Virus record (IMG/VR): IMGVR_UViG_3300012667_000235 | Span: 330-64,329 of that record | Direction: 5' to 3' (one strand) | Source: a virus | Length of the DNA stretch: 64,000 bases | Part shown: positions 11,690 through 64,000 of the stretch, one piece after another | Numbering within the stretch: the first letter of the stretch is position 1 | Layout of the letters: each line of letters starts with the position of its first letter | Translations under genes and position numbers: made by a program | Notes under the pieces: generated by a model | Databases searched by the model: none | What the model saw: only the letters and a program-made list of their open reading frames with translations | Told to the model about the DNA's origin: nothing

Positions 11690-11697
11690 GGACGCAA

Positions 11698-11913
11698 ATG
11701 CAATATAACACTCAGAAGCTATCGGAAGCTGTTCGCAACAGGTTAAATCAGGCACAGGAGCCTTCAGAAGCTCCTATCCCTAGCCACCTAGCAGCTATCA
11801 TACAAAAACGTGCTACAGCGGCTTCTGATGCGTCTAATACGGATGTGCGTAAGCCAATCAAGCAAGCGTTCTTAGGTAAGAGCTACACTAACTCAAATGC
11901 GTACTTGGATTAA
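11698..11913 (+). CDS. hypothetical protein
   Basis: 71-aa ORF closing the portal-proximal cluster. Confidence 0.3.
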   Translation: MQYNTQKLSEAVRNRLNQAQEPSEAPIPSHLAAIIQKRATAASDASNTDVRKPIKQAFLGKSYTNSNAYLD

Positions 11914-11945
11914 TATCTAAATTTATGTCAATAAAAATCGTTACC

Positions 11946-11974
11946 TTGACAACGCAGAGATTTCGTGATATAAT
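11946..11974 (+). promoter_or_regulatory. sigma70-type promoter (TTGACA-17-TATAAT)
   Basis: Perfect -35 TTGACA at 11946-11951, a 17-nt spacer and perfect -10 TATAAT at 11969-11974. Lies upstream of the head-morphogenesis genes. Confidence 0.55.
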
Positions 11975-12004
11975 TATTATTAAGTTTAAATAAGATGGGA
12001 TGTT

Positions 12005-12439
12005 ATGAATAAAATAAAAAATAAACCATATATACCACCCCATGCTGATTTCACAGATATAATTAAAAGTAGATTACCAGTTAGTAAATCGGTTAATGAA
12101 GAATTAAAACAAGTATTGTATGTGGTTATGCTACCAGATAGTACTGATTTACATGGTGATATTACATCTGAAGAAGAAGTTCGTAAAGCATGTCATAATT
12201 ATAATTCATCTGATATGAAGGCTAACTTATTTCACATGACTCAAACTAATACTTTTTCAGTGATAGAGTCATATATAGCACCTGTAGATTTTGTTTTAAA
12301 TGATGTTATAGTCAAGGCTGGTACTTGGTTAGCAAAATTACAGATTAACGATGATGTTGTTTGGGATTTAGTTAAATCAGGCGACATTTGTGCCGTATCT
12401 ATCGGCGCAGTAGCTAATGTTGAGGTACTTGATGAATAA
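12005..12439 (+). CDS. XkdF-like phage protease / head maturation protein
   Basis: The MLPDSTDLHGDITSEEEVRKACHNY segment resembles the XkdF-family D.HGD...E.I..A.H motif. Located upstream of scaffold and capsid genes. Confidence 0.4.
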   Translation: MNKIKNKPYIPPHADFTDIIKSRLPVSKSVNEELKQVLYVVMLPDSTDLHGDITSEEEVRKACHNYNSSDMKANLFHMTQTNTFSVIESYIAPVDFVLNDVIVKAGTWLAKLQINDDVVWDLVKSGDICAVSIGAVANVEVLDE

Positions 12440-38010: not shown

Positions 38011-38021
38011 ATAATCCTTGT

Positions 38022-38501
38022 TTATTCCCATACCGTTTCATCAACTACAGCATACTTATCTCGACTTTCTAGATATTCCTGAGTATCAACTGTAGCACTT
38101 CTTTCTCTATATAAATCTTCTAGGATTTTACTTCCGCTATACTTATCTTTTGCTTCTTTGCTGGCATAACCAGAAGTAATCCATGCTTCATCCTGTCGTT
38201 CTTCACCAACCCATCTACTACAAAACGATACTTCATTTAATCGATTTCGATGTTTGATACCATCTTGTCTTTCAATTCGTTTACTAGTATCAATACCAAG
38301 CTGCCATAAAATATTTAGAAATTCTTTTGGATTGTCTGTTTCAAGTGAAGCTGAATAGTCTGGTAAAACTTTAATTAATTCAGATTCTGATATGATTACG
38401 TTAGCGACAATCATTGAATTTTGTTTAACTTTATGTGACTGAAATCTTGTTAATGTTAATCTTTCACTAACATCATTTTTAGGTTGTGTAATATTTTGCA
38501 T
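38022..38501 (-). CDS. hypothetical protein
   Basis: 159-aa ORF, no motif. Confidence 0.4.
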   Translation of the reverse strand: MQNITQPKNDVSERLTLTRFQSHKVKQNSMIVANVIISESELIKVLPDYSASLETDNPKEFLNILWQLGIDTSKRIERQDGIKHRNRLNEVSFCSRWVGEERQDEAWITSGYASKEAKDKYSGSKILEDLYRERSATVDTQEYLESRDKYAVVDETVWE

Positions 38502-38776: not shown

Positions 38777-39316
38777 TCATGTATCCATCCTATCAAAAAT
38801 TGTTTTCATAATAATTTTCCCCTCTCTAATTAAAGATTCCCTAAAAGCAAGTGCTGCTTCTAAAGACTTTTCTACCGACGATAAATTAAATCTTTCAGAG
38901 AGGGTAATACCTTCTTCTTCAATCCATCTAACATAGTAGACACCCCTCTTTTTGTCAAAATTTATATGCTTATACCCGCTAAGACTATCTGGACTAGTTG
39001 GCTTATTTTTTAAATTTTCAGAGCGAGTACATACTCTTAAATTATCACTTACATTGTTAGACTTATTTAAATCCAAATGATCAATTTCAAGATCATCACT
39101 AAATTCTGAATTTGTCAAGAATGATACGATTCTGTGACAAAGATATTTACTTCCATTTAACCCAACATACCAATAACCTCTTTTACCTAAAGAGCCAGCA
39201 ATAGTTCCTTCTTTAGCACGTACCGCATATGTAGTCTTCCAAATTAAACCAGACGGACTTGTTGAGGAATACTCTAAGTTCTTTTCTATAAAATATCTAG
39301 GTAATGGTTTTGGCAT
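38777..39316 (-). CDS. HNH endonuclease with AP2-like N-terminal domain (homing-type)
   Basis: GYWYVGLNGSKYLCHRIV ... IDHLDLNKSNNVSDNLRVCTRSEN. Confidence 0.7.
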   Translation of the reverse strand: MPKPLPRYFIEKNLEYSSTSPSGLIWKTTYAVRAKEGTIAGSLGKRGYWYVGLNGSKYLCHRIVSFLTNSEFSDDLEIDHLDLNKSNNVSDNLRVCTRSENLKNKPTSPDSLSGYKHINFDKKRGVYYVRWIEEEGITLSERFNLSSVEKSLEAALAFRESLIREGKIIMKTIFDRMDT

Positions 39317-39833
39317 TTTTTAGTTCCAGTTCTAAAATAAACATCAGACTAGCAATAGCAGCGGCAAGGTGATTACGCCCATTTTCACTATCATTCTTCT
39401 CCCCTCTTTGCCAAGCCCACATATGTCGATTAGCAGCACTAAAAAATCGATCATTTGGATTCTCAAGTCTCATCCAATTATAGTCTTCGTACTTTTGGCT
39501 ACCGTAAGTAAGAACCTCTACAACCTCTTCTAAAGCATATGGAGGTAAGAGTGAATATCGAGGCTTACCCGAATCGTATTTACGTCCTACAGGCGTTTCT
39601 ACAGAGTTTTCCTCTGGTGTAGCTACTTCGTCAGCGTATTGCCATATTGCGCTGTAATCCCTATTACAAACATAATCCGAATCATCATCTTCTTTAGGAC
39701 ACTCTACAAGGTCTTCATTTTGGTCATTAAATGCACAGTATTGACATTGCTGATACCTAGCTGCACCCGCATGTTTCATATAAATTACTTTTCGACCATT
39801 TATATGGTAATCATTTGGTTTTGTATTTTCCAT
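39297..39833 (-). CDS. putative dNTP pyrophosphohydrolase-like protein (Cys-rich N-terminus plus KYDSGKPRYSLLPP...YGSQKY..NW domain)
   Basis: The motif resembles the N-terminal domain of phage dATP/dGTP diphosphohydrolases. This is a recollection; needs HMM confirmation. Confidence 0.35.
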   Translation of the reverse strand: MENTKPNDYHINGRKVIYMKHAGAARYQQCQYCAFNDQNEDLVECPKEDDDSDYVCNRDYSAIWQYADEVATPEENSVETPVGRKYDSGKPRYSLLPPYALEEVVEVLTYGSQKYEDYNWMRLENPNDRFFSAANRHMWAWQRGEKNDSENGRNHLAAAIASLMFILELELKNAKTIT

Positions 39834-39835
39834 CT

Positions 39836-40327
39836 TTATTCCTCTTCAATTTCTAGATTAGTTGGTACAAAAGAACTTACGTCATTACTTACAAAGTTAC
39901 TAGGTTTGCGAACTTTATTATTCATATCCTTGAATACGATTAAGTTATGTTGTGGACTACGTTCATAAATAATCGGTACTTTCTTTTCTTGGTATAGTGA
40001 AAGTGTGTCGATTAGCACTTCTGTTTCTCGCTCTGGTACAAATTTGGTAAGATTATTAGCTGCTGTAGCTTGCATAGCACCTACTGTATTCATTTTGAGA
40101 GCGTCAAGCATTTGACCCAATCCTGCAGCGGTAACCATAACGTCAACATAACCATCAAGTAGACCTGTATAATTATTTGATAGTAGATCATGCCGAGTTT
40201 CATTTAACTCTTCTTGAATTAGTTCGATCTGCTCTAGTAGAGTCTTTTTGGTTGGAACACCATCTTTACCTGCAATAATATTGAAAAGTTTGCAGTCGCT
40301 AATAAAATCATTTGTTGTGTATGTCAT
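39836..40327 (-). CDS. MazG-like nucleoside triphosphate pyrophosphohydrolase
   Basis: LEQIELIQEELNETRHDLL....LLDGYVDVMV matches the MazG EExxE...D motif pattern. Confidence 0.6.
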   Translation of the reverse strand: MTYTTNDFISDCKLFNIIAGKDGVPTKKTLLEQIELIQEELNETRHDLLSNNYTGLLDGYVDVMVTAAGLGQMLDALKMNTVGAMQATAANNLTKFVPERETEVLIDTLSLYQEKKVPIIYERSPQHNLIVFKDMNNKVRKPSNFVSNDVSSFVPTNLEIEEE

Positions 40328-40607: not shown

Positions 40608-41552
40608 TCAGATTTTAGCTGCAGACAGAAGACTTGCACGTTTTTCTTTTGTATTGATTGTCTGACGTTTGCGATGTACGCTTCCACAAGAATTGCAGCG
40701 AACTTCTTGAAACTTACTTACATCAGTATACACTGCTCTACCAGTTAGTTCAACGTCTGTACTTGCACATACAGGACAACGTGTTTCAGCATCATTATAA
40801 TAATTTGCAGCATTAAAATTACTTGCTGTACCAAATGAACGTAGTGCCATATACACATGCTCTAGTAGGTCTGTATCTTGCTTACAATATTCCAGCATAT
40901 TATCTAGTGCTTCTTCATCACCTTGAAGCGTATCAATCCATAGCTTAATACCACCTGTTTGCTTCTTACGTCCAATCCCCAATAGATCAGCAATTGAATC
41001 TAGTCGGTTACTAGGTAGACGGAAATGTTTCTTAGCCATTTGAAGAGTATCTAGCACCTTTACACTAGGTAGTGGAGGAATACCATTTACAAGGCAACGG
41101 GCTTGAAGTACTTTATGGTCAAACTGAATTGCATTATGTGCCACAACAGCATCGGCTTGATGATATAGCTCCCATAGTGCAGCAGTAACATTTGTATCAA
41201 CTCCCTCATTGATATCATCCTGAGAATACAAGATATGAGTTTCATCTTCACCTAGCCATTTATAACTAGCACAGATAATCCATCCACCTTCAGTATAAAT
41301 ATTATCTTGACCAATATTCTGCTTCCATCGACCAAATGAATATGCCAGCGCAGGGGCAGTCTCACAGTCCCAAATTAAGATACGTGGGCCTTGATCTGTC
41401 AAATCCGTAGATTCTACTTCATCTTTATACTGGTTGATTACATTATTTACTGCAGATTTACTACAGTTCAATGCTCGGGCAATTGCTCTAGATTTCATAC
41501 CTGTTTCAGCATATAATAAAATTAGATTTTTAAAGTCTTGTGAAAATTTCAT
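40608..41552 (-). CDS. DEDDy 3'-5' exonuclease with N-terminal HTH and C-terminal zinc ribbon
   Basis: Exo motifs: I is WDCET, II is HNAIQFD, III is YCKQDTD. N-terminal HTH segment RAIARALNCSKSAVNNV. C-terminal CPVCAS...CNSCGS zinc ribbon. Confidence 0.7.
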   Translation of the reverse strand: MKFSQDFKNLILLYAETGMKSRAIARALNCSKSAVNNVINQYKDEVESTDLTDQGPRILIWDCETAPALAYSFGRWKQNIGQDNIYTEGGWIICASYKWLGEDETHILYSQDDINEGVDTNVTAALWELYHQADAVVAHNAIQFDHKVLQARCLVNGIPPLPSVKVLDTLQMAKKHFRLPSNRLDSIADLLGIGRKKQTGGIKLWIDTLQGDEEALDNMLEYCKQDTDLLEHVYMALRSFGTASNFNAANYYNDAETRCPVCASTDVELTGRAVYTDVSKFQEVRCNSCGSVHRKRQTINTKEKRASLLSAAKI

Positions 41553-42058
41553 TAGGTATCCTTTATTGAGTTAATTGTAGTCGAGATTATAACATAACTT
41601 AGACTTCTGTCAAGTGTCAAAGCTTTGAATAATTTTAAGCGTTCAGCAGAATTAGAACCAGTTTTACTACCTAATGCACTAAGTACTTTAGATTGTTGCG
41701 CTGCAGTAAGTTTCTTATAATCGATAGTTACTCGTTTTAACCAAGCTGGATGATATGGATTTTTACTATAATCTTGTTCTAAGTATAAAGCAAGATTGCG
41801 TAATATAGTTGGTAATGGAATATCTGTAAGCCATTGTAAACATCGTTTATGAGCATTGGTAACTAGACCTTCAAATGCGTTTGTATTCCTATTTAAAGCG
41901 GCTCTACAGTGTTGTGTGGTATGGTCATGATCAAGTACAACTGCTTCACAGAATGGTTCATTTAAAATTGGATCAATTCCATTTTGTTTATTTACAAAAG
42001 AATCTCTAACTTCTTTGATTTCGGTTACACTGTATAAACTTTTAGGTTTCATTTCCAA
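41552..42058 (-). CDS. recombination endonuclease VII-like Holliday junction resolvase
   Basis: CEAVVLDHDHTTQHCRAALNRNTNAFEG matches the endo VII signature (LDHDH...G..R..LC..CN). Confidence 0.65.
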   Translation of the reverse strand: MEMKPKSLYSVTEIKEVRDSFVNKQNGIDPILNEPFCEAVVLDHDHTTQHCRAALNRNTNAFEGLVTNAHKRCLQWLTDIPLPTILRNLALYLEQDYSKNPYHPAWLKRVTIDYKKLTAAQQSKVLSALGSKTGSNSAERLKLFKALTLDRSLSYVIISTTINSIKDT

Positions 42059-42246: not shown

Positions 42247-42485
42247 GTAATCTCCTTAAATTGACTTCCTGAGAAGTTATCAACAGTACTTTCTAACTCC
42301 CAAATTCTATGTTGAAGTGAATGATTGAGTTTCCAAATCTTCTCAATTTCATCAGCGGCTTCTTCTAGTAGATCGGAAAGTCTATCTGGTTTACCTTCTT
42401 GAACTGATTTACGACTATGGATATTCCTACGAATCTCTGCACGTTTACGTAGTCTTACTACGATGTAATCATTCCAACTATTCAT
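42243..42485 (-). CDS. hypothetical small protein
   Basis: 80 aa. Confidence 0.35.
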   Translation of the reverse strand: MNSWNDYIVVRLRKRAEIRRNIHSRKSVQEGKPDRLSDLLEEAADEIEKIWKLNHSLQHRIWELESTVDNFSGSQFKEIT

Positions 42486-43453
42486 AATTCAACTCCATAT
42501 GTACGGCAGAATTCGGCTGCATTTAAATCATCAGTTTCATGCTGCATCATTCTTGCGCATTTAAAATATAGCTGAAACATATCTTTGTAATCTGCTCTGC
42601 TCTTCTTACCTGTCCAATCGACGTAATCAAAAGGTTTAGGATACCATTCTTTGTATTGGTTAACTACCTTTGTTAAAGCTTCATACTCAGTCTTGCAATC
42701 CTTCAGTAGTTTATACGCTGATTTCTCTCTGTACTTCTTACCAGCAATCTCTGATGGTTTCCAATGGTCAGCAATATCCCCATTGACCATCTGGAACATC
42801 AACCAAATAAACCCCCTGCCTGTAATCTTCTTACCTGTATCCCATAATAAACCAAAATCGGGCACTAGTTCTAGTATAGGATCATCAGCAGTAAAATCAT
42901 ACAGATTTAAACCGCTTGCTGAATAAGCATCTTTATCTTGACTGACAAGAATAGGTATATAACCCTTGTTTAGATATTCATAACCTTTAATAATTAGATC
43001 ATCATCTGCTTCTCTGTTATCAGCAAGTAATGAAGGATGATTACGCCATAGGAATGTCTTAGCTGCTTTAAGATGCACAGGACGCATCAAACCTTCACGA
43101 TTTGATTTATACTTTGATGGTAATGGTAATGTATCTCTAAAGTTATTCTTTCCACTTAAGCAGATTAAATAATCATCAGCAAATACTGCCGAGTTAATAC
43201 TATTGATCTGATTCTTCAGTATTTTATAGACATTAATCAAAGGTTCAGGATTTTGCTGGTCATCAATTTTGTAATCATCTGGATTAAATACCATATCTTT
43301 GGACTTAAGTAAATCCTTAAATTCTGTACGGTTCTCAAATTCCTTAGTTCTACCTGAAGGTAAATGCTGGACTAATACAGAGCGATTATCAACAACGGCA
43401 CTAGCGCGAAATGCTAAAGCATCACCGTCATAAATAGCTATAATTTTACTCAT
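42482..43453 (-). CDS. 5'-3' exonuclease / flap endonuclease (FEN family; T7 gp6-like)
   Basis: N-terminal IYDGDALAFRA. Later acidic cluster ADNREADDDLIIKG. Confidence 0.55.
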   Translation of the reverse strand: MSKIIAIYDGDALAFRASAVVDNRSVLVQHLPSGRTKEFENRTEFKDLLKSKDMVFNPDDYKIDDQQNPEPLINVYKILKNQINSINSAVFADDYLICLSGKNNFRDTLPLPSKYKSNREGLMRPVHLKAAKTFLWRNHPSLLADNREADDDLIIKGYEYLNKGYIPILVSQDKDAYSASGLNLYDFTADDPILELVPDFGLLWDTGKKITGRGFIWLMFQMVNGDIADHWKPSEIAGKKYREKSAYKLLKDCKTEYEALTKVVNQYKEWYPKPFDYVDWTGKKSRADYKDMFQLYFKCARMMQHETDDLNAAEFCRTYGVEL

Positions 43454-54374: not shown

Positions 54375-54622
54375 AATTTTATAATCCGTTTAAACCACAT
54401 ATTGCTAAAGTAGACGATACTAAATATGCAATTAGAAGACACTTTGTATTTTATTGGCTATACCTTGATCGAGATAATTTTGCATATTGGTGGGGACTTC
54501 CAGAGTATGTAAGGAAGTATTGTGTACTTAATTCGGAATCTGAAGCTATTAAATTACTGGATCGATATTATAGACGTAAGAAAATTATTTCTGAGTTTTA
54601 TTCAAAAGGTTCTAATAAATGA
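54371..54622 (+). CDS. hypothetical protein
   Basis: 83 aa. Confidence 0.4.
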   Translation: MKFYNPFKPHIAKVDDTKYAIRRHFVFYWLYLDRDNFAYWWGLPEYVRKYCVLNSESEAIKLLDRYYRRKKIISEFYSKGSNK

Positions 54623-55023
54623 AACAAAAGCATATTAATGCTTACATGGAGTGTGCGGAAGCATTCGCTAAATGTAGCAATGCTACTAGACTTAAAGTTG
54701 GTACGGTTATTACAAAAGATAACCGTATTATTTCTTGTGGCTATAATGCTCATGCTGCACACATTAATGACCCATGTGAACTACCTGATGGTACAACTGA
54801 TCCTAGACTACGGCATAGCGAAAAGAATGCACTGATGGGTCTTGTACGTAGCAATCAGAGTGCTTTAGATGCTGAAATGTTCTGTACTCATGCTTGCTGC
54901 CTTCCGTGTTCGATTGACATTGTAGACTCTGGTATAAAAAAATTTTACTATAGGAACAGTTATAGGGATGATTCTGGTGTACAATACCTGCAAAACAACG
55001 GTGTTGAAGTAATTAAGATTTAA
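54619..55023 (+). CDS. dCMP deaminase
   Basis: RHSEKNALMG ... CTHACCLPCS matches the dCMP deaminase motifs HxE...PCxxC. Confidence 0.8.
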   Translation: MKQKHINAYMECAEAFAKCSNATRLKVGTVITKDNRIISCGYNAHAAHINDPCELPDGTTDPRLRHSEKNALMGLVRSNQSALDAEMFCTHACCLPCSIDIVDSGIKKFYYRNSYRDDSGVQYLQNNGVEVIKI

Positions 55024-55067: not shown

Positions 55068-56081
55068 ATGATTAAGTTACCAGAGCCTGCAGAGTATGTA
55101 TGGCAACCTGATGGTACTTTTGACATTGGGCAGGAGCGGCAGTTGTCGCCAAATACAGGCCCTTGCAACGGCTGGAATGTATATCCAATCTACACAGAAT
55201 CCCAGATGCGCCAAGCAATCCGTGATGCGCTGGAGGAAGCTGAGAAAGCTGCATGGGACAGCAGAACCATGAATAATGGTGCGTGTTGCAGAAGTGTGCT
55301 TTTGCGCTCACTTGACGCTATCCCGCAAACTGAAGGAGGAAGCATGATTGAACAAGCAAAAGCAGTGGCACAGCGGCTGCGTGAAGTAAATATGTATGGT
55401 GGAACAATTGATTTTCATAAGATTGTTGACACCATTGACGCACTGGTGCAAGAGGTGGAGCGACTGCAAAAAGAAGTGGACAAGTTCAGCTATACATTGA
55501 TTGCGGCAGCGAATCAAAAACTGCGAACAGAAGTTAACTCACTCCGCGCAGAGATTGAGCGGCTGAAGGCGAAGGAAGAACGCTACACATTGGTTGATAC
55601 CGCCCTGAAAAACGAGGTAGAGGAAATGCGCCAAGAAGTGGAGCGGTTGAAGCAGGCTTGCGACAAATTCAGCGAGAGTGAAATGCTGTTGAAGCAGGAG
55701 CAATCGGAGCCTGATAGCACTTGCTCTGACACACTGCGGTTACAAGGTAAGCCGTACCCACGAACATGCAAGAAGTGTGGACTCGGCCCCTGTATTGGGG
55801 GACGTGCTGCCGCACCAAAGCAGGAGCAAGCGGAGCCGGTGGCATACCGATGGAAAGAAAGTAACTGGTTAGGTTGGGAGACAAATTGGGAGTGGCATGA
55901 CAGAGCCAAAGATATGGGGTGCCCTATTGAGTACGCATACACCGCACCCCAAGGCCAAAACGAGTTACTAAAGCAGGCGCTGGAAGCGTTGGAGAACTCA
56001 CAGTTCACGGATGAGTACCGCAACTACGGGTTGCAAAGTGACGCCATCACAGCCATCAAACAGCACTTGGAGGAAAAATGA
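55068..56081 (+). CDS. modular hypothetical protein (modules A+B+C shared with genes at 61.5-64 kb), GC-rich
   Basis: Module A is MIKLPEP...TESQMRQAIRDALEEA. Module B is MIEQAKAVAQRLREV...IDALVQEVERL. Module C is KQEQAEPV...YTAPQGQ. Near-identical DNA stretches are shared with 63857-63880 and 63981-64000. Confidence 0.5.
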   Translation: MIKLPEPAEYVWQPDGTFDIGQERQLSPNTGPCNGWNVYPIYTESQMRQAIRDALEEAEKAAWDSRTMNNGACCRSVLLRSLDAIPQTEGGSMIEQAKAVAQRLREVNMYGGTIDFHKIVDTIDALVQEVERLQKEVDKFSYTLIAAANQKLRTEVNSLRAEIERLKAKEERYTLVDTALKNEVEEMRQEVERLKQACDKFSESEMLLKQEQSEPDSTCSDTLRLQGKPYPRTCKKCGLGPCIGGRAAAPKQEQAEPVAYRWKESNWLGWETNWEWHDRAKDMGCPIEYAYTAPQGQNELLKQALEALENSQFTDEYRNYGLQSDAITAIKQHLEEK

Positions 56082-56256
56082 TCTTTACATTTATTCAAAT
56101 CAATAATTGGAAAAAATACGAAAAAGTTCGCATGAGTGGACGTTATAATATGTGGTTTCCAGAAGCTCAAGCTGCAGCAGGTTTATCAAAAGAAGATTAT
56201 ATATTCTGTATTAAAAATTACTCAGAGCTAAGAGAAGCTGCTAGTAAGGATAATAA

Positions 56257-56418
56257 ATGAAATTTCATATTCACAAGTGGCTACCGTGGTCTGAGCCGGT
56301 TCAGACTGCACATGACTATGCAAAGGTTCAAGTGCGTTACTGCGAAGTGTGCAACAAGTGCCAAGCCTCAAAGATCAAGCAACCTTGGAACACATGGTTT
56401 AACTGGAGTAGAAAATGA
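56257..56418 (+). CDS. hypothetical small Cys-containing protein (53 aa)
   Basis: CEVCNKC motif. GC-richer than its surroundings. Not in the ORF track (<60 aa). Confidence 0.3.
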   Translation: MKFHIHKWLPWSEPVQTAHDYAKVQVRYCEVCNKCQASKIKQPWNTWFNWSRK

Positions 56419-56783
56419 CTGATTTTGAAATAAATAAATTACTAGCATTAGCTATTGGATGGAAACCAAATGATATTTGCCTTTACTGCAATCAAATTGA
56501 CGTATGGTTTGTAAAAGAATGGGAAGCTGATTGGAAAAGATTTGATTATAGAGATTGGGCTACTATTGGCCCAATAGCTGAAAAATATGGAATGTTTCCT
56601 AGCCCAATGTCAGGTGGAGATTATAATAAAGCAAAACGTCAAGGTTATACTGACATTGAAAAATGGGAAGTTATCTATTGTGACTACAGTGTTGGGGGTA
56701 TCAATAATGCAAAATGGTGCAGAGTTGAAGATACTTGCGCTAAACGAGCAATTGCCCTTGCTGTTATAGAAAGAAATAAATGA
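56415..56783 (+). CDS. NinX/DUF2591-like phage protein (AT-rich copy)
   Basis: LALAIGW...FDYRDWATIGPIAEKY. Paralogous to 61763..62026. Confidence 0.4.
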   Translation: MTDFEINKLLALAIGWKPNDICLYCNQIDVWFVKEWEADWKRFDYRDWATIGPIAEKYGMFPSPMSGGDYNKAKRQGYTDIEKWEVIYCDYSVGGINNAKWCRVEDTCAKRAIALAVIERNK

Positions 56784-57175
56784 CAACAGTTGAAGTTTGG
56801 AAATCTATTATAAACTTTGAAGGTTATTATGAAGTAAGTAACTTTGGTAATGTGAGAAGTTGTGATAGATTAGTAAATTGCTCCAGAGGATATAGCAGAA
56901 GACTTTGGAAAGGTAAGATTTTATCTAAAATAGTAGCAAGTACCAGAGGTTATTATCAAGTCTCTTTTTGCAAATCTGGTATTATTACAAAACATTACAT
57001 ACATCGTTTAGTAGCTGAAACATTTCTACTAGAACGAAATGAAACTGTTAATCATATTGATGGTAATAAACTAAATAATGAATTATCTAATCTTGAATGG
57101 GTAACATATTCTGAAAATAATAAACATGCGTTTTCTCTTAAACTAAAATTACCATCTGGAGGTATAAATAAATGA
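56780..57175 (+). CDS. HNH homing endonuclease (NUMOD4-like plus HNH_3-like)
   Basis: VEVWKSIINFEGYYEVSNFGNVRS and NHIDGNKLNNELSNLEWVT. Immediately upstream of thyX. Confidence 0.8.
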   Translation: MTTVEVWKSIINFEGYYEVSNFGNVRSCDRLVNCSRGYSRRLWKGKILSKIVASTRGYYQVSFCKSGIITKHYIHRLVAETFLLERNETVNHIDGNKLNNELSNLEWVTYSENNKHAFSLKLKLPSGGINK

Positions 57176-58083
57176 CAATTACAGCTAAAATTATTGCAGA
57201 TAGTACAGATCAAAAAGGTGTACGGATTATTACATTTGAATTGGACTATCCTCGTTTTATTCATAGTGAACTAATGACACATCGTGTATTTAGTCGTAAC
57301 AGTGCAAGTTCTCGTGCTATTCCAATTCAAAGTATGATTGATAATATCAGAGCTAATCCTGCTACTCCTATTCATTGGGGTAAGAATCAAACAGGTATGC
57401 AAGCTAAACAAGAATTAACTGGTGTAGAATTAGAAGCTGCTCAAACGCAATGGGGTGCTGCAGCAACTGATGCATTATATTGGAGTTATCGTCTAAGTAC
57501 CAATGGTACTCATAAACAAATTGCAAATCGTATTACTGAACCATTTCAACATATGAAAGTTGTAGTAACTAGTACTGAATGGAATAATTGGTTCTGGCTA
57601 CGTAATCATCCTGATGCTCAACCTGAAATTGCAGAGCTTGCAAAGCAAATGCTAATAGCAATGGAAAATAGCAAGACAGAAGTATTAAAGCATGGTGAAT
57701 GGCATTTACCTTATGTAAAGACATATAGAGATACTGAAGATAGTGTTCGCACATATTGGGATGATGAAGTAGCTCAGATTACACTGCAGCAAGCAATTAT
57801 GATTTCTGCTAGTTCTTGTGCTCAAGTATCTTATCGTAAAAATGATACATCATTGGAAAAAGCTGAAGTAATTTATAAACGATTAATTGAATCAGAACCT
57901 TGTCATGCAAGTCCAGTAGAACATCAGGCAATGTGTTATGATCAGCATATCGGTCTTGGAGAATTTGGAGAATGGCCCGTTGGTTATACACATATTGATC
58001 GTAAAGGTCAGCTATGGTCAAATAATTTCCGTAGTTGGATTCAGAATCGTGCGTTAATTCCTAATAATGTAAAGGAAGGTTAA
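57172..58083 (+). CDS. thyX: flavin-dependent thymidylate synthase ThyX
   Basis: ThyX signature RHRxxSxNxxSxR is present as HRVFSRNSASSRAIP. Confidence 0.9.
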   Translation: MTITAKIIADSTDQKGVRIITFELDYPRFIHSELMTHRVFSRNSASSRAIPIQSMIDNIRANPATPIHWGKNQTGMQAKQELTGVELEAAQTQWGAAATDALYWSYRLSTNGTHKQIANRITEPFQHMKVVVTSTEWNNWFWLRNHPDAQPEIAELAKQMLIAMENSKTEVLKHGEWHLPYVKTYRDTEDSVRTYWDDEVAQITLQQAIMISASSCAQVSYRKNDTSLEKAEVIYKRLIESEPCHASPVEHQAMCYDQHIGLGEFGEWPVGYTHIDRKGQLWSNNFRSWIQNRALIPNNVKEG

Positions 58084-58084
58084 T

Positions 58085-58474
58085 ATGGCTGGATATAGAA
58101 GGGCAAGACCAAATCAATTAAACCAAAAGGAATTAATTGCACTAATTGCAAAAAAGACAGGATATCTTAAATATGAAGTAGAGGATATTCTTGAAGGTTT
58201 GCGTTATGTGATTACTGATGCTATTGTTAACGACAGGGATGTTTATCTTAGGCACTTATTTACAGTAATGCAGAAAAAGATTCCACCACGTAATATGATT
58301 AATCAGAAAACAGGTGAATATTACATATCAAGAGGAAGCGTAGGAATGACCCTAAAGATTAGTGGGTTTATGCGTAATGCTCTGAATGGTGTGTATGATG
58401 ATATGAAGCCTCGTAGTGATACGGACGATGATGAAGATGAAGAAAGTTCTGAAGATATGGTAGAAGCCCAATAA
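58085..58474 (+). CDS. HU/IHF-like DNA-binding protein with acidic C-terminal tail
   Basis: KELIALIAKKTGYLKYEVEDILEGL and the arm PPRNMINQKTGEYYISRGSVGMTLK match the HU fold pattern. C-terminus DTDDDEDEESSED. Confidence 0.7.
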   Translation: MAGYRRARPNQLNQKELIALIAKKTGYLKYEVEDILEGLRYVITDAIVNDRDVYLRHLFTVMQKKIPPRNMINQKTGEYYISRGSVGMTLKISGFMRNALNGVYDDMKPRSDTDDDEDEESSEDMVEAQ

Positions 58475-58711
58475 ACTGTTGTATAATCTAGGTTCTTAAT
58501 CACAAGGACATAGAATGCAAGGCTTCTTTTTTATCGATGAACCAAAAACTGATCAAAATTCTGAGCAGGATACCGACATTGTTCTTAAACCTATGCTAAA
58601 CTTAGACCAAGAAGTAAACGACTATGCTTTAGTTTTTCCTATCGTAAATGGAAAACGTACAGAAGCTAGTAAGAAACTTCTTGGTCTTTATCGTTAATAA
58701 AAAGGATACAA

Positions 58712-59242
58712 ATGGCACATAATGAAATTTTAAATGGTGAGTTTGATGATAAACCTTGGTTACCAAAAGTACCACTGAATATGACAACTATTAATTTAAT
58801 TCTAGTAATTAAAAATGAAAAGCTACATCCTTCTATTCGTGGTTTAGCATTGCATTTAACTCAAGTTGAATACTGCAATATTGGTTATTTTTTCAAAAGT
58901 CTTAGTAATTCGGATATATCATACTTACTACATCGATTTAATATCTCTGAAAATGAAGGTAAAGAAGATCGAGAAATTGTAATGTCAGCTACGCAGGAAA
59001 TGATTCTTTTGACATTACTACTAGGTAAGTCAGAAGGTCAGACTGATATTACACCTGACTTCCTAAAGGATGCTATGCCAAATCTAGGTACACTTCTTAC
59101 TATTGAAGACATGGTTCGTGATAAGAAACTGAAAGTAAATTATCTAAACTACAGTCTGACGGATGTAAAAAAACCTGTAATTCTTGGAAAAACTATGGTA
59201 GAATTGAAAAAGATGTTCAACGGTGATAAAGGAAATGAATGA
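58712..59242 (+). CDS. hypothetical protein
   Basis: 176 aa. Confidence 0.4.
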   Translation: MAHNEILNGEFDDKPWLPKVPLNMTTINLILVIKNEKLHPSIRGLALHLTQVEYCNIGYFFKSLSNSDISYLLHRFNISENEGKEDREIVMSATQEMILLTLLLGKSEGQTDITPDFLKDAMPNLGTLLTIEDMVRDKKLKVNYLNYSLTDVKKPVILGKTMVELKKMFNGDKGNE

Positions 59243-59316
59243 ATAAGTAGCTAATCTTCTTACAGCAAGGGTATTTAAACTATTAATTTAATCATTAAGA
59301 AAGAGAGTCTTTAATT

Positions 59317-59508
59317 ATGAGTTTTACTACAAATGTTATTAAACGTGAAAAACATATTCAGAATCTAGTAAAGAAATTTAAAGTAGATCAGCAAGATGAT
59401 CCTGAAGATTTTTCATATGAGCTAGAAGCAGAGACACGACAGATTGTTGAAAACCTGCAATCTTCTGGATATAAAAATAAGTCTTTTAATTTTGATGACA
59501 GTTACTAA
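59317..59508 (+). CDS. hypothetical small protein
   Basis: 63 aa. Confidence 0.3.
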   Translation: MSFTTNVIKREKHIQNLVKKFKVDQQDDPEDFSYELEAETRQIVENLQSSGYKNKSFNFDDSY

Positions 59509-59522
59509 TTTGAGGTATAATA

Positions 59523-59735
59523 ATGCAAGACCAAGTTAAAAATATGAAGTTTACAAAGCCTTTGTTCCGTATCTTTAGAAGCAGCAAAAGTAATTCACTT
59601 TATGCTGTACATCTTGTAGATAAGCGTGAAGATTCGATTTGTATCATGAATGATGAACTTTCTTACGAACAAGCTCAAGATTATATGCTAGAATATAGCC
59701 AACTACAAAACGTAGTTGAAACCGAAACCATTTAA
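59523..59735 (+). CDS. hypothetical small protein
   Basis: 70 aa. Confidence 0.3.
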   Translation: MQDQVKNMKFTKPLFRIFRSSKSNSLYAVHLVDKREDSICIMNDELSYEQAQDYMLEYSQLQNVVETETI

Positions 59736-59744
59736 TTAATTACT

Positions 59745-59930
59745 ATGAAAGTTAAAAATATGTTCTACTCTCGTGAATTTGATTTTGATCAGTCACCTCG
59801 CCTTAGCCAAAAAGAAATTAAGTTTTCATACCGTGGCTACGAAGAAAAGAATTCTTCTGAAAAGAAGTCAAAAGATAAAGCAAAGAAAAAAGACTATTCT
59901 CAAGAACGTAAACAGAAGCGAGGTGAATGA
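59745..59930 (+). CDS. hypothetical small Lys-rich basic protein
   Basis: C-terminal KKSKDKAKKKDYSQERKQKRGE. Confidence 0.3.
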   Translation: MKVKNMFYSREFDFDQSPRLSQKEIKFSYRGYEEKNSSEKKSKDKAKKKDYSQERKQKRGE

Positions 59931-60220
59931 TCATGTTTAATTATTATAATATCAACCGTGATACAGGTAAAAATCACTATGCATATGATAGTAAGCATGT
60001 TGTTAAAGAATCGCATAAGTCACCAGAACCTTGGTGTAAAATCGATACTGCTGGTAATGTAGTACATCTTGATATTGACGCAGCTAAAAAGCTTGCAAAA
60101 GCACCTGTAGATTGTTTTGTTGCCCTTGCCCTTGCTGCTTATAATCAAGGTCGCAAGGATGCACTTAATGAAGTACAGATGAAGGTATTTGATTTGCAGT
60201 ATCCAAAGGAATTCCAATGA
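59927..60220 (+). CDS. hypothetical protein
   Basis: 97 aa. Confidence 0.35.
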   Translation: MIMFNYYNINRDTGKNHYAYDSKHVVKESHKSPEPWCKIDTAGNVVHLDIDAAKKLAKAPVDCFVALALAAYNQGRKDALNEVQMKVFDLQYPKEFQ

Positions 60221-60423
60221 CGCTTAGAATTAATAAAGAAGCAGGTAAAGGTGATCGTCGTAGAACTACACAAGATGATAATGCCTATCGTAATAATTAT
60301 GATCTGATCTTTGGTAAGAAACAAAAAGCTACACCTGATCTACCTGAAACAGTAGTAGAAGGTATTGAGAAATATACCAAAGAGCAAGAAAATAAATCTG
60401 ATGAAGAGTCAGAAAAGGAGTAA
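60217..60423 (+). CDS. hypothetical small protein
   Basis: 68 aa. Confidence 0.3.
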   Translation: MTLRINKEAGKGDRRRTTQDDNAYRNNYDLIFGKKQKATPDLPETVVEGIEKYTKEQENKSDEESEKE

Positions 60424-60426
60424 AGT

Positions 60427-60603
60427 ATGCTACAATTAGTACTTCTTTTTATTCTAGCTACTATTATTACTGCTAGTCTTATTATTAAGATGAAATATCT
60501 ATCAATACATGATTGGAAATATCTTGGTAGAATTGCTGTGTTATTTGGAATTGCTGCTACAATCGTAACACTATTTGGAATTGGTATCGTTGTTTTGTTC
60601 TAA
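60427..60603 (+). CDS. small membrane protein (58 aa, 2 TM)
   Basis: MLQLVLLFILATIITASLII...IAVLFGIAATIVTLFGIGIVVLF. Not in the ORF track. Confidence 0.3.
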   Translation: MLQLVLLFILATIITASLIIKMKYLSIHDWKYLGRIAVLFGIAATIVTLFGIGIVVLF

Positions 60604-60618
60604 CCGTAAAGGAGTTAT

Positions 60619-61446
60619 ATGATTAATCTAATTAATGTTTTTGCTATGTTTAAGCGTACTATGCTTGGACTAATGGTAGGTCTTATGTTGTTTGGTACAG
60701 TAGCCTGTACACGAATTGAAACAGGTGAAGTAGGTGTACGAATTAATGCAAGTAAGCAAATCGAAGGATCGGAACTACCTGCAGGTTCGTTCAATCAAAC
60801 GGTTATTGGTTCTGTCCTGACGTTTCCTGTAAAAGATATTACAGTATCTCTGGAGAATAAAACTCCAATGACTGCTGATAATTCTCCACTAGCTGATTTT
60901 GATATTACTGTAGTATATGCACTGAATCCTAATTCTGTTGCTGAACTATATAGTACCAAGAGTAAGTCATTTCACGCAGAAGAAAAAGGTGATATTTATT
61001 TGATGTACAGCTACATGCAGACGTTGGTAAATAATGCTTCATATAAAGTAGTACGTGAATATAAATCACTTGAAGTAGCAGACAATCGTTCAAAGATTGA
61101 AGCGCAGATTCGTGATGTGGTAACAAAGGAATTGAAAGATCAAGACCTAGCAACTGCAATTAGTCTTACTGTAGTTCAAGTACGGAATATTCTACCGAAT
61201 GCTGATATTTTGAAGTCAGCTACAGATTATGTTAAATCGCAGAATGCTTTGAAGATTGCTGAAAATGAAGTTAAGCTGGCAAAGCTTGAGTCTGAGCGTA
61301 TGGCTGCACTAGCTAGTAATAGTGGTCAGAGCATTGCTTATATGCAAGCGCAAGCTACTCTGAACCTTTCACAAGCTGCTTTGCAGGGTAAAATTAACAC
61401 CATCTTGATTCCGCATGGTATGACAATGTTTGGGTCTACAAAGTAG
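60619..61446 (+). CDS. SPFH/band-7 domain protein with N-terminal signal/lipoprotein-like anchor
   Basis: N-terminus MLGLMVGLMLFGTVAC. SPFH-like core TGEVGVRIN...TADNSPLADFDITVVYALNP...VREYKSLEVADNRSKIEAQIRDVV...ISLTVVQVRNILP. Confidence 0.6.
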   Translation: MINLINVFAMFKRTMLGLMVGLMLFGTVACTRIETGEVGVRINASKQIEGSELPAGSFNQTVIGSVLTFPVKDITVSLENKTPMTADNSPLADFDITVVYALNPNSVAELYSTKSKSFHAEEKGDIYLMYSYMQTLVNNASYKVVREYKSLEVADNRSKIEAQIRDVVTKELKDQDLATAISLTVVQVRNILPNADILKSATDYVKSQNALKIAENEVKLAKLESERMAALASNSGQSIAYMQAQATLNLSQAALQGKINTILIPHGMTMFGSTK

Positions 61447-61535
61447 ACACTGTGTAAATTTATTTAAATAAGGCTCGTAGTTGTGGTACTTTCTGTGCTA
61501 CACTACGGGCTTAATTCATTTATAGGAGTACAGAA

Positions 61536-61766
61536 ATGATCAAGTTACCAGAGCCAGAAGGCACAATTGCATATCCCGCTAGGGACTATGAACCTGAGTG
61601 GATCAGTTCACAGGAAGCATATTCTGAATCACAGATGCGCCAAGCAATCCACGATGCATATGAAGAAGCTGCAAATTTGGTAGCTAACTTTGCGATTGAT
61701 ATTGATGATGAGTGGGTGCTGGAACAAGCTGCAATAGCAGTACGCAAACTGAAGGAGGAAGTATGA
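61536..61766 (+). CDS. module-A paralog (MIKLPEP...SESQMRQAIHDAYEEA), GC-rich
   Basis: Shares protein and DNA motifs with 55068 and 62023. Confidence 0.45.
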   Translation: MIKLPEPEGTIAYPARDYEPEWISSQEAYSESQMRQAIHDAYEEAANLVANFAIDIDDEWVLEQAAIAVRKLKEEV

Positions 61767-62026
61767 CCGACCTAGAAATCAGCAAAGCCCTTGCACTGGC
61801 GATTGGGTGGAAGAAAGATGACATTGCGATGTTTAGCAATGAAATGGAGGTGTGGTCAGGCGGCTGGCGCACCTTCGACTACCGCGATTGGAACGTCATC
61901 GGCCCGATAGCTGAACGCTATGACTGCTTTCCTACAAAGATGAACGGTGGCTGGTACTGCCTTGATGAGTACGCAGACACCCCGCAGAAAGCCATTGCGC
62001 TGTATGTGATTGGAGCGAAGAAATGA
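61763..62026 (+). CDS. NinX/DUF2591-like protein (GC-rich copy)
   Basis: Start moved to ATG 61763, which has a GGAGGA RBS. LALAIGW...FDYRDWNVIGPIAERY. Confidence 0.4.
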   Translation: MTDLEISKALALAIGWKKDDIAMFSNEMEVWSGGWRTFDYRDWNVIGPIAERYDCFPTKMNGGWYCLDEYADTPQKAIALYVIGAKK

Positions 62027-62205
62027 TTAAGTTACCAGAGCCAGCCGTACACGGACTACACGCCTACACCGAATCACAGATGCGCCAAGCAATCAAGGAT
62101 GCGTATGAAGAGGCTGCGAAGGTGTGTGAAGCAGCAGATGACTGGCACCCGCAGGAAGCTATAGCAGCAGCAGCTATACGCAAACTATCGGAGGAATTGA
62201 AATGA
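62023..62205 (+). CDS. module-A paralog (MIKLPEP...TESQMRQAIKDAYEEA)
   Basis: 60 aa, shares the module-A motif. Confidence 0.4.
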   Translation: MIKLPEPAVHGLHAYTESQMRQAIKDAYEEAAKVCEAADDWHPQEAIAAAAIRKLSEELK

Positions 62206-62570
62206 CAAAAGAAATTGAATACTGCTACAGCACCGACGAAGAGTTTTTCAACTACGAATCAATGGGTGATTTGCTTGACTACCTTGACGGCGAGACAGAC
62301 GACAAGATTGGCGCAACGTACTGGCGCGGCGAAAAGAAGGAGCTAACCCATGCTGAGTGCATCGACGTTAGTGCGTTCCTTGAGATGTGCGATGAGCGAG
62401 CCTATGAGGAAATTGGCGAGGTGTATGACAACTGCTTCACCGACGTAAAAGATGAAGCAAAAGATGAATTGGGCGAGCTTATCCATGCGTGGGCAAAGAA
62501 GCACGTAAACATTCGCTACTGGAAAGTCTTGAACGTGAAAGAGCTAAAGATCACACCGGAGGACGTATGA
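62202..62570 (+). CDS. highly acidic hypothetical protein (Asp/Glu-rich; DNA-mimic candidate)
   Basis: 122 aa with many D/E residues spread along the sequence (DEEFFNYESMGDLLDYLDGETDD ... EEIGEVYDNCFTDVKDEAKDELGE). Confidence 0.4.
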   Translation: MTKEIEYCYSTDEEFFNYESMGDLLDYLDGETDDKIGATYWRGEKKELTHAECIDVSAFLEMCDERAYEEIGEVYDNCFTDVKDEAKDELGELIHAWAKKHVNIRYWKVLNVKELKITPEDV

Positions 62571-62791
62571 CCGAAGCAGAACGCAAGCTAATAGAAGACC
62601 TTGAACTGAACCACGAATACTGCCCCAAGGAAGTGATCTTGCAAGCAGCAGCCCTACTCCGTAAGCAAGCGGCTGAGATTGAGCGGCTGCGTGAGGCGTT
62701 GAATGCTGTTTACATCGAATGTGATTGGTACGGTGACAACGGTCGGGATGCTATGGAGAAAGCAGGAAAACTATTACGAGGTGAAGCATGA
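62567..62791 (+). CDS. hypothetical coiled-coil protein
   Basis: Start moved to ATG 62567, which has a GGAGG RBS. 74 aa. Confidence 0.4.
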   Translation: MTEAERKLIEDLELNHEYCPKEVILQAAALLRKQAAEIERLREALNAVYIECDWYGDNGRDAMEKAGKLLRGEA

Positions 62792-63063
62792 GTAATCTAG
62801 TAGACCGTTTAAACAATGAGCATCCGAACTACTCGGACTCTATTGCCGCCGCCGACAAAATACAAGAGCTACAAATTGACTTGAATATTTTGAAGAGGGG
62901 GTATCACGTACTGGTGCAAGAGCGCGACAGACTCCGCGCAGAGAACCTGAAGCTGCGGGAGGTGTTGGAGAAACTGGCACGGCTCGGCAACGGCGACCAG
63001 TACGGCAACAGTATTGGCAACGAGATTGCCCGTGCAGCACTGGAGAACACAAATGAAGGTTAA
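62788..63063 (+). CDS. hypothetical coiled-coil protein
   Basis: 91 aa. Confidence 0.4.
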   Translation: MSNLVDRLNNEHPNYSDSIAAADKIQELQIDLNILKRGYHVLVQERDRLRAENLKLREVLEKLARLGNGDQYGNSIGNEIARAALENTNEG

Positions 63064-63217
63064 GGAATACTTGAATTTAAGCGATGCAGTTGTGTATGTA
63101 AAAAACGGCTGCATTCACATTGGTGATATTAGTTCTACTTTTATTCTGACTGCAACAGAATGGGAAAAGATGAAAAAGTTTATCGACGCTGCATTACTGG
63201 AGAACAAACATGATTGA
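63053..63217 (+). CDS. hypothetical small protein
   Basis: First ATG, with a GGAGA RBS. 54 aa. Confidence 0.3.
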   Translation: MKVKEYLNLSDAVVYVKNGCIHIGDISSTFILTATEWEKMKKFIDAALLENKHD

Positions 63218-63572
63218 AGAAGCAAAAGCACTATCCAAGCACCTGCGAGAAGCAGAGTTTACAGACGTAACAATTAGCTATGCAGACACCATCGACGCAC
63301 TGGTGTCAGAAGTGGAGCGGCTGAAGCTGAACGCTGCTGCGGCAGTCAATGAATATGTGTCGCTTGAGCGAGAAAACGAGCGGGTGAAGCAGAGCCACAT
63401 TGAGCGGTTGCTACGCATCGAGCAAAAAGTAGATGTGATAATTGCAGAGCGTGACCAACTCCGCACCTTGATTACCAAGCTCTACACAGCGAAGGGTCGC
63501 TACCACACACAGCTTGCAGCGTGCGACCTGTTTGACGCTGTTGGGTTGAAGAATGAAAGGCCCGTAAAATGA
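63210..63572 (+). CDS. module-B paralog (MIEEAKALSKHLREA...IDALVSEVERL)
   Basis: Shares module B with the interior of 55068..56081. Confidence 0.4.
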   Translation: MIEEAKALSKHLREAEFTDVTISYADTIDALVSEVERLKLNAAAAVNEYVSLERENERVKQSHIERLLRIEQKVDVIIAERDQLRTLITKLYTAKGRYHTQLAACDLFDAVGLKNERPVK

Positions 63573-64000
63573 ATGAAGAAGCTAAGGAAATAGCTAATCT
63601 ACTACGCAGTAATGGAGAAGGTTGCAATTGTAACGCATGGAGTTCAAGTGAGTGTGCATGTGATGCGACATGGGGAGAAGCGTACACCTCACAAGGTGCA
63701 GACACTATCGACACACTAGTAGCAGCAAACTCTATGCTCATAGGTCAACGTGCATCCTTGGTGGTAGAGCGTGATGCACTGGTGCAAGAAGTGGAGCGGC
63801 TGCGTGAGTCATTAGCAGACTTTGCCAGCGCAGCGGTATCTTTGCAAAGGTATATCGCTGAACCAAAGCAGGAGCAAGCGGAGCCGGTGCCACAGTTCCG
63901 CAAAGTGGGTTGCGCTGATTGGTATGACGGATTCCCTGACCATTCTGATGGCGGTGGCCCTTATGAATCTCGCACTCTTTACACCGCACCCCAAGGCCAA
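63569..64000 (+). CDS. hypothetical protein, 3'-truncated by window end; carries module C (KQEQAEPV...YTAPQGQ)
   Basis: ATG 63569 overlaps the previous stop. No stop codon before the window end. N-terminal CNCNAW...ECAC Cys cluster. DNA identical to 55939-55958 at its last 20 nt. Confidence 0.4.
   Translation, partial: MNEEAKEIANLLRSNGEGCNCNAWSSSECACDATWGEAYTSQGADTIDTLVAANSMLIGQRASLVVERDALVQEVERLRESLADFASAAVSLQRYIAEPKQEQAEPVPQFRKVGCADWYDGFPDHSDGGGPYESRTLYTAPQGQ

Follow-up and report, generated by a model that had tools for sequence, protein, structure and literature searches.

GC-rich islands of shuffled coiled-coil genes in an AT-rich freshwater phage probably stem from a gene pool shared with GC-rich phages

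Introduction

Small accessory genes whose composition differs from that of their neighbors, known as morons, and the mosaic nin and early regions of lambdoid phages were reportedly described by Juhala and colleagues and by Hendrix and colleagues in 2000. Ea22 of lambda and the ead/Ea22-like proteins are biochemically uncharacterized early coiled-coil proteins of lambdoid phages with shuffled N- and C-terminal parts. Here we describe a set of small genes in a 64,000-nucleotide (nt) stretch of viral DNA, hereafter the window, which covers positions 330 to 64,329 of IMG/VR record IMGVR_UViG_3300012667_000235, a metagenomic contig of about 64.3 kilobases (kb) from a phage with 36% guanine plus cytosine (GC). 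The genes form two GC-rich islands (island 1 at 55068-56081, with a further short GC-rich gene at 56257-56418, and island 2 at 61536-64000) and encode proteins assembled from modules A, B and C, the individual copies of which are numbered (A0, B0 and so on). Contigs and loci from other phages carry L numbers in what follows, and database proteins P numbers.

Mosaicism produced by relaxed homologous recombination at short, diverged homologies has been documented in lambdoid phages and defective prophages (De Paepe et al. 2014, PMC3945230). The islands resemble that mosaicism in having segments more than 90% identical between unrelated phages, in sharp transitions accompanied by weaker flanking homology, and in breaks that fall both inside genes and at their borders. 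They differ from it in that the partners are about 20% apart in GC, the tracts are very short (24-171 nt), and neither an integrase nor a Rad52-like recombinase was recognized among the proteins scanned. We regard the locus as an instance of this known kind of phage evolution (relaxed homologous recombination, PMC3945230) in a new, uncharacterized gene family.

Results

The GC content of segments 55068-56081, 56257-56418 and 61536-64000 is 0.504, 0.444 and 0.490, respectively, compared with 0.339 for 56419-61535 and 0.369 for 1-55067. In sliding windows the profile is not uniform but climbs from about 0.30-0.38 to 0.44-0.55 at 55.0-56.1 kb and 61.5-64.0 kb, with a minor peak at 56.26-56.42 kb, which bears out the contrast drawn in a preliminary description of this DNA. 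Analysis of codon positions gene by gene places the anomaly at synonymous sites: GC at third positions (GC3) averages 0.50 in the 11 island genes (range 0.36-0.64) versus 0.23 in the other 84 (standard deviation 0.06, maximum 0.43; Mann-Whitney p = 5e-8), and in this respect the island genes are, like morons, unlike the genes that flank them. Two further GC peaks, at 8-10 kb and 30.5-32 kb, have high GC at first and second codon positions (GC1 and GC2) and a GC3 of just 0.15-0.22, and are therefore explained by amino-acid composition alone. The change points coincide with ATGA start/stop overlaps between genes, composition alternating from rich (55068-56081) to AT-rich (56078-56260), rich (56257-56418) and AT-rich again (56415-56783). 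Island 2 is itself heterogeneous, gene 63053-63217 having a GC content of 0.35.

Segments of island 2 are more than 90% identical to otherwise unrelated, GC-rich phages. Positions 61762-61932, internal to the island and within its NinX-like gene, are 94.7% identical over 171 nt to L179 (53.5% GC, from a different sample), and 63866-64000, in the C2 core, are 99.3% identical to the same contig over 135 nt. Positions 63862-64000 are 100% identical over 139 nt to L047 (57% GC), the identity starting exactly at the KQEQAEP linker and directly adjoining a stretch (63800-63889) that is 86.7% identical to L049. In BLASTN, some 25 other patches were 80-100% identical over 24-145 nt, each of them nearest to a different contig among L046-L050 and L136. 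Weaker homology flanks the breakpoints at the KQEQAEP linker, at gene starts and at the Shine-Dalgarno junction throughout the pool. Together, the GC3 excess and the 94.7-100% identical segments in contigs of 53-57% GC support the import from a higher-GC phage lineage suggested in the preliminary description.

Scanning IMG/VR for DNA encoding KQEQAEPV recovered six contigs of 49-57% GC with the same module family, and L136 (55% GC, 67.8 kb) has a collinear cluster consisting of a NinX-like gene, one other gene, a PHROG 1672 gene, a B-like gene and an A-like gene. The MoxR-like ATPase of L136 is only 33% identical to those of 70-75-kb phages infecting Achromobacter, Pseudomonas, Erwinia and Stenotrophomonas, which we take to be N4-like; as a hint to the host or donor this is weak. 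The GC-rich segments thus do match other phages when compared with GC-rich IMG/VR contigs, but in a collection of 50,697 phage records megablast found nothing similar to 54-64 kb, and tblastn with the 337-amino-acid (aa) product of island 1 matched, across the cysteine region, just the Ralstonia phages Firinga and Hennie and ‘phage Simon’. A NinX-like alignment scan of representative genomes returned a single contig of a Geobacteraceae metagenome-assembled genome, and no host signal.

The two islands have only short patches in common. In a dot-plot-like BLASTN comparison they share patches of 20-57 nt at 80-100% identity and one 128-nt stretch at 69%, embedded in otherwise diverged or unalignable sequence, and no island sequence matched the remaining window. 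Alignment confirmed the three modules of the preliminary description: A occurs in three copies (A0 within the 337-aa open reading frame (ORF) of island 1, A1 at 61536 and A2 at 62023), B in three, the third weak (B0 from 55344, B1 at 63210 and B2 at 63569), and C in two.

Database relatives combine these modules differently, as anticipated in that description. P0117 is a three-way mosaic of the window's B paralogues that lacks the cysteine module and has its junction at the KQEQAEP linker: residues 47-71 match B1 at 22 of 25 positions, residues 72-126 match B0 at 55 of 55, and residues 124-164 match the B2/C2 core with one mismatch. The C2 core stands behind four other N-termini as well (L047, P0118, P0119 and P0122). 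A full HNH endonuclease takes the place of the variable core in a B/C-type protein of L048 (10808-11851; contig GC 49%), where it lies in frame precisely between the KQEQAEPV linker and a YDTAPQGQ border. Active recombination between copies, as originally proposed, is therefore supported for the gene pool by the P0117 mosaic but not as exchange within this genome, the patches being pool-wide. Intragenomic gene conversion was considered as the sole origin of the identical patches and rejected, since the same patches are spread across the whole pool.

The exact repeats quoted in the preliminary description are all present, although the second copy of the 25-mer encoding the KQEQAEPV linker begins at 63865 and not at 63857. 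The others are a 20-mer at 55939 and 63981, extendable to the 21-mer of the module C border, and a gene-start 20-mer at 55068, 61536 and 62023; none of the three was matched in 100 shuffles. All 16 codons of KQEQAEPV and YTAPQGQ are the same in both copies, and the core between these borders is about 25% identical. The same 23-mer of the linker is found in four of the six viral contigs encoding the motif (L046, L047, L049 and L050), and identical patches of 20-31 nt are common to the whole gene pool. Gene junctions consist of an ATGA overlap with a conserved Shine-Dalgarno sequence, CGCAAACTGAAGGAGGAAG(T/C)ATGA. The window (and probably its source contig), at 63980-64000, and the unrelated contig L047, at 6488-6508, stop at the same base, which falls inside the 21-nt repeat also found at 55938; because of this shared end point, assemblies seem to break at the repeat.

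Codon usage separates the age of the genes from that of the patches. At conserved residues, codon identity between some paralogues reaches 60-71% versus about 38% expected, and synonymous sites are saturated for the B1-B2 pair and for the NinX-like pair (18 same codons observed, 17.8 expected). This pattern indicates that the paralogues are old and the identical patches recent or homogenized. The NinX-like genes at 56415 and 61763 are 59% identical in amino acids and have a GC3 of 0.20 and 0.64, respectively, so the AT-rich and GC-rich copies noted earlier do form a paralogous pair, but the NinX/DUF2591 label is less secure: against Pfam NinX (PF10765) the AT-rich copy scores 14 bits (E = 0.066), under the gathering threshold of 22.6 bits, and the GC-rich copy has no match. 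In L179 a precomputed PF10765 hit falls on another gene (2428-2781), not on the NinX-like homologue at 3137-3412.

The single ORF of 337 aa in island 1 spans all three modules, and was first described as an A+B+C fusion, but the join is not a clean modular one. Read in frame +1, the final 72 nt before the B0 start encode the usual A C-terminus, VRVAEVCFCAHLTLSRKLKEEA, and a stop codon that overlaps the B0 start in the sequence ATGA (Shine-Dalgarno GGAGGA at 55335-55340, ATG at 55344). Positions 55324-55347 are 95.8% identical to the end of the A1 gene (61743-61766), six database homologues (P0084, P0052, P0083, P0020, P0080 and P0025) begin at residue 93, which is the B start, and the A-family genes elsewhere in viral contigs (about 13) all stand alone at 57-120 aa. 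For these reasons, the ‘fusion’ is most likely due to a frame disruption near the 3' end of the A gene, which makes the ORF run on into the B gene; B0, having kept its own Shine-Dalgarno sequence and ATG, is probably still independently translatable. A genuine fusion of an A start with C exists in L048 (171 aa).

A fourth module had been overlooked. It is a four-cysteine motif, DSTCSDTLRLQGKPYPRTCKKCGLGPC, at 55713-55793, bracketed by 20-nt direct repeats encoding KQEQSEP and KQEQAEP; the B2 gene has one KQEQ linker and lacks the module. Of 84 hits from a database of 5.8 billion proteins, 76 contain the motif, which is the most conserved part of the protein. Its DNA is just 70-76% identical to that of L033-L038, and the module is therefore conserved as protein, not as DNA. 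A search for the back-translated motif in 185,579 representative genomes of bacteria and archaea gave 0 hits and no indication of the host; the motif therefore looks restricted to non-integrated phages. In the form YPRTCKKCGLGPC, it is near-invariant in 76 metagenomic proteins.

Searches with the island proteins against Pfam, PHROG, NCBIfam, PADLOC and PDB returned coiled-coil noise only, apart from PHROG 1672 (62202-62570) and the sub-threshold NinX match (56415-56783), and ten database relatives have no PHROG either. AlphaFold2 predicts for B0 (residues 93-337) an N-terminal helix, a 96-residue helix, a low-confidence cysteine module and core, and a C-terminal helical hairpin (mean predicted local distance difference test score 79); the model is too uninformative to warrant a fold search. 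Some relatives bear extra small domains (Lar, WDGH, RNA polymerase alpha C-terminal domain). Homology to lambda Ea22 was tried and rejected at hhalign probabilities of 0.3% (84-sequence profile) and 1.4% (3-sequence profile). The likeness to Ea22-like proteins, as mosaic coiled-coil early proteins, is thus an analogy, with no homology detectable by hhalign at these probabilities. Our guess would be that the island proteins are oligomeric early proteins that display variable binding domains to host factors.

AT-rich relatives show what occupies the slot of island 2 in other phages. A metagenome scan with the lipoprotein gene adjoining this island recovered 80 freshwater loci, and in the closest of them (L051, lipoprotein 86% identical) the lipoprotein gene is directly followed by two AT-rich genes, one A-like and the other with the B1 C-terminus. 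The B1 gene of the window, whose AT-rich homologue in L051 thus occupies the same slot, is 86.6% identical in DNA to L050 (134 nt) and 80% to L048 (145 nt). In L153 an A1-like gene lies in AT-rich surroundings and uses different synonymous codons, and L133 and L138, from two independent samples, carry a homologue of the 62202 gene (79% amino-acid identity) that is locally GC-rich (GC3 0.54) on a backbone of 39% GC. Since AT-rich relatives carry such homologues, the import looks like replacement of alleles, or addition from a shared pool, and not like acquisition of wholly foreign functions. Insertion between genes that are adjacent in relatives, as in morons, was not seen: the L051 slot holds the AT-rich homologues, no closer relative was found, and a ThyX-based search of IMG/VR for backbone relatives gave at best 54% identity.

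The islands resemble morons and lambdoid nin regions in that small accessory genes of differing composition lie beside a NinX-like gene in an early region that varies. They differ in that no promoter and terminator of their own were detected, that they are translationally coupled into the operon by ATGA overlaps with their neighbors, and that the nearest relative has homologues and not an empty site. L051 has a GC-rich island of its own at 10650-12250 (0.50-0.56 GC), with genes unrelated to those of the window, so that GC-rich islands are a recurring feature of this group of AT-rich phages, though not with the same cargo.

Coordinates of the islands, their modules and the intervening genes are collected in Table 1.

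Table 1. Features of the GC-rich islands and adjoining genes (window coordinates).
Feature	Coordinates	Strand	Basis or comment
Island 1: 337-aa ORF comprising A0 module, B0 coiled coil, cysteine module, C0 module and helical tail	55068..56081	+	GC 0.50, GC3 0.53
Out-of-frame 3' end of A0 gene	55275..55346	+	Three-frame translation; frame +1 reads VRVAEVCFCAHLTLSRKLKEEA and stop
Linker repeat 1, KQEQSEP, AAGCAGGAGCAATCGGAGCC	55692..55711	+	Repeat family D12
Cysteine module DSTCSDTLRLQGKPYPRTCKKCGLGPC, four Cys	55713..55793	+	Most conserved piece of family
Linker repeat 2, KQEQAEPV, 25-mer	55817..55841	+	Identical to 63865-63889
YTAPQGQ border of module C, 21-mer	55938..55958	+	Identical to 63980-64000
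AT-rich 60-aa gene between two GC-rich genes, GC3 0.21	56078..56260	+	Composition switches at ATGA overlaps
GC-rich 53-aa ORF, cysteine-containing, GC3 0.52	56257..56418	+	Codon-position analysis
AT-rich, weakly NinX-like gene, GC3 0.20; paralogue of 61763 gene	56415..56783	+	
A1, stand-alone A-family gene, 76 aa	61536..61766	+	Alignment
GC-rich NinX-like gene, GC3 0.64	61763..62026	+	5' 171 nt 94.7% identical to L179 (53.5% GC)
A2, stand-alone A-family gene, 60 aa	62023..62205	+	62064-62140 92% identical to L046 and L047
122-aa PHROG 1672 protein (function unassigned in PHROG)	62202..62570	+	69-79% identical homologues in AT-rich relatives and GC-rich contigs
74-aa coiled-coil protein, MTEAERK...AAEIERLREAL	62567..62791	+	N-terminal type also in L047, L048 and P0118
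91-aa coiled-coil protein	62788..63063	+	
54-aa gene with ENKHD ending, GC 0.35	63053..63217	+	L047 has same ending upstream of its B gene
B1, B-family gene with KGRYHTQLAACDLF C-terminus	63210..63572	+	Alignment
B2-C2 gene, cut by window end (probably contig end)	63569..64000	+	

No relatives of the ORF at 56257-56418 were found in viral contigs, and the B2-C2 product is not in the protein database, whereas other genes of the contig are there.

In the backbone of the phage, structural genes are followed by a replication and nucleotide-metabolism set comprising DNA polymerase, primase-helicase, 5'-3' exonuclease, endonuclease VII, ribonucleotide reductase, MazG-like pyrophosphohydrolases and dCMP deaminase, and there are also three HNH endonucleases and two tRNAs. 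The replication genes are of a kind usual in virulent phages, and no integrase was recognized among the proteins scanned. By terminase comparison the nearest cultured relative is Limnohabitans phage DC31 (45% identical), and Curvibacter phage P26059A (42%) is a distant member of the same backbone lineage. DC31 has 37.58% GC on a host of 59.25% GC and carries a dCMP deaminase that has been discussed in connection with a phage GC far under that of the host (PMC12195039); this lineage thus offers a precedent for an AT-rich phage that infects a GC-rich host. The window shares with DC31 a dCMP deaminase, ThyX and low GC on what would be a GC-rich host. The two are nevertheless distant, and tblastn with the 337-aa island protein, the one island product searched against DC31, gave no match there.

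Several features lie outside the islands. The gene at 57172-58083 looks like ThyX, and the nucleotide-metabolism genes (dCMP deaminase, ThyX, ribonucleotide reductase and two MazG-like) lie at 54619-55023, 57172-58083, 35782-38031 and 39297-40327. Genes resembling HNH homing endonucleases, all AT-rich, are found at 1490-2242 (+), 38777-39316 (-) and 56780-57175 (+), one of them directly between the AT-rich NinX-like gene and ThyX, adjoining island 1. A tRNA-like element at 326-397 (+) scores 48.5 bits against the Rfam tRNA model (E = 4e-9), with no ARAGORN call, in an apparently non-coding and slightly GC-richer window start. Among the structural genes, a 71-aa ORF at 11698-11913 (+) has a GC3 of 0.43, the top value outside the islands, and may be another small import.

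Discussion

We propose that the islands are horizontally exchanged accessory genes, mosaic below the level of the gene, which an AT-rich phage drew from a pool that it shares with GC-rich phages, and we put the probability of this at roughly 0.78. The pool would consist of small mosaic early-region genes circulating among freshwater phages of 39-59% GC, and the island versions would have kept the composition, and in places the near-exact sequence, of phages of 53-57% GC, which would make their import recent relative to the backbone. Import may have occurred when a GC-rich phage infected the same cell and the two genomes recombined; the common host would probably have been one of the high-GC Comamonadaceae, and the imported versions would have replaced resident AT-rich homologues or been added to them. 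Exchange could take place at gene boundaries, where ATGA overlaps coincide with the junction CGCAAACTGAAGGAGGAAG(T/C)ATGA, and within genes, at the pool-conserved stretches (MIKLPEP-type starts, KQEQ(A/S)EP linker and YTAPQGQ border) that bracket interchangeable cores. The outcome would be coiled-coil proteins built like beads on a string, with an N-terminal helix, a long coiled coil, an optional four-cysteine knuckle, a variable core and a helical tail.

Several observations weigh against this proposal or limit its reach. No candidate donor matches over more than 171 nt at above 90% identity, and ‘recent’ is relative. The asymmetry of A/T and G/C substitutions against the GC-rich contigs is not significant (116 versus 92) and gives no signal of amelioration. 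The 139 nt of 100% identity lie where the contig ends, flanked by two repeats, and could have been produced by the assembly, although transfer is supported without them, by the L179 matches. The island proteins have no Pfam, PHROG, NCBIfam, PADLOC or PDB relative beyond coiled-coil noise, and their function is inferred only. No Rad52-like or RecT-type recombinase was recognized in PHROG scans of 20 replication-region proteins, several small ORFs being unscanned; the same scans did find a 5'-3' exonuclease (42482-43453) and endonuclease VII (41552-42052). Promoter- and terminator-like sites in 52-64 kb are no more frequent than in shuffled sequence and none brackets the islands, with a consensus that may not fit this phage or its host. 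The host, finally, is inferred from a terminase that is 45% identical.

A dedicated diversification system, in which the linker DNAs are selected recombination borders and cores are swapped rapidly like cassettes in an arms race with the host, would make sense of the fully shared border codons around a divergent core, the 23-mer common to four of six motif-encoding viral contigs, the one core behind at least five different N-termini, the HNH endonuclease at the core position in L048 and the several paralogues per genome. However, ordinary relaxed homologous recombination together with the survivorship of recent exchanges predicts the pattern equally, and the genes are not associated with a dedicated enzyme such as a site-specific recombinase or a reverse transcriptase. 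The borders are also plausibly structural parts of the protein (a linker and a beta-strand), and the sample of contigs is small and possibly one of close relatives. We consider such a system unlikely. Nor does the locus look like a diversity-generating retroelement: the variable cores are unalignable and not point-substituted, and no reverse transcriptase was found among the proteins scanned, which did not include every ORF. That the 20-31-nt borders (KQEQAEP, YTAPQGQ, the MIKLPEP start and the Shine-Dalgarno junction) are maintained recombination sites of a domain-cassette exchange network is, in our estimate, improbable, and nothing in the data requires it. If true, such a network would let unrelated co-infecting AT- and GC-rich phages rapidly re-assort their early coiled-coil binding domains, and would be the phage counterpart of the mosaic gene-conversion families of antigenic variation.

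Very unlikely, in our view, is an assembly chimera, in which the assembler would have joined pieces of a co-occurring GC-rich phage to the AT-rich contig through short shared repeats. Island 2 does lie at the contig end, its terminal 139 nt, identical to L047, run from a 31-nt repeat to the 21-nt repeat also found at 55938, L047 stops at the very same base, so that assemblies break there, and the truncated B2-C2 product is missing from the protein database. Yet both island 1 and the 56257 gene lie inside the contig between AT-rich genes, their junctions being start/stop overlaps free of shared repeats, and island 2 is collinear with no single GC-rich contig. Independent AT-rich assemblies hold family members in the same slot (L051), and a GC-rich 62202 copy sits within an AT-rich backbone in two samples (L133 and L138). 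Shared families, recurring GC-rich copies and a conserved slot thus argue against a chimera and favor the replacement of alleles.

That there was no transfer at all, and that the genes are old residents whose GC reflects an Ala/Glu/Arg-rich coiled-coil composition or selection for host-like codons in early genes, we regard as extremely improbable: the proteins are indeed rich in A, E, R, Q and L (GC1 0.50-0.67), the probable host is GC-rich and the same families occur in AT-rich relatives, but the excess lies at third positions and backbone genes with equal GC1 and GC2 hold a GC3 of 0.15-0.22, adjacent early genes transcribed in the same direction are AT-rich, the AT- and GC-rich NinX-like paralogues are synonymously saturated, and 94.7-100% DNA identity with contigs of 53-57% GC is beyond convergence.

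Exchange of accessory genes from a shared pool does not overturn current views of phage evolution. It does define an uncharacterized module family, without a Pfam or PHROG match and with a near-invariant four-cysteine motif, that is seemingly confined to freshwater phage metagenomes. The islands offer a nucleotide-resolved example of gene flow between phages about 20% apart in GC, which implies that such phages meet in the same host cell, and they show that a mosaic tract need be no longer than a protein linker. For an uncultured phage the islands may also serve as a clue to host linkage, pointing to an AT-rich phage on a GC-rich, Comamonadaceae-like host.

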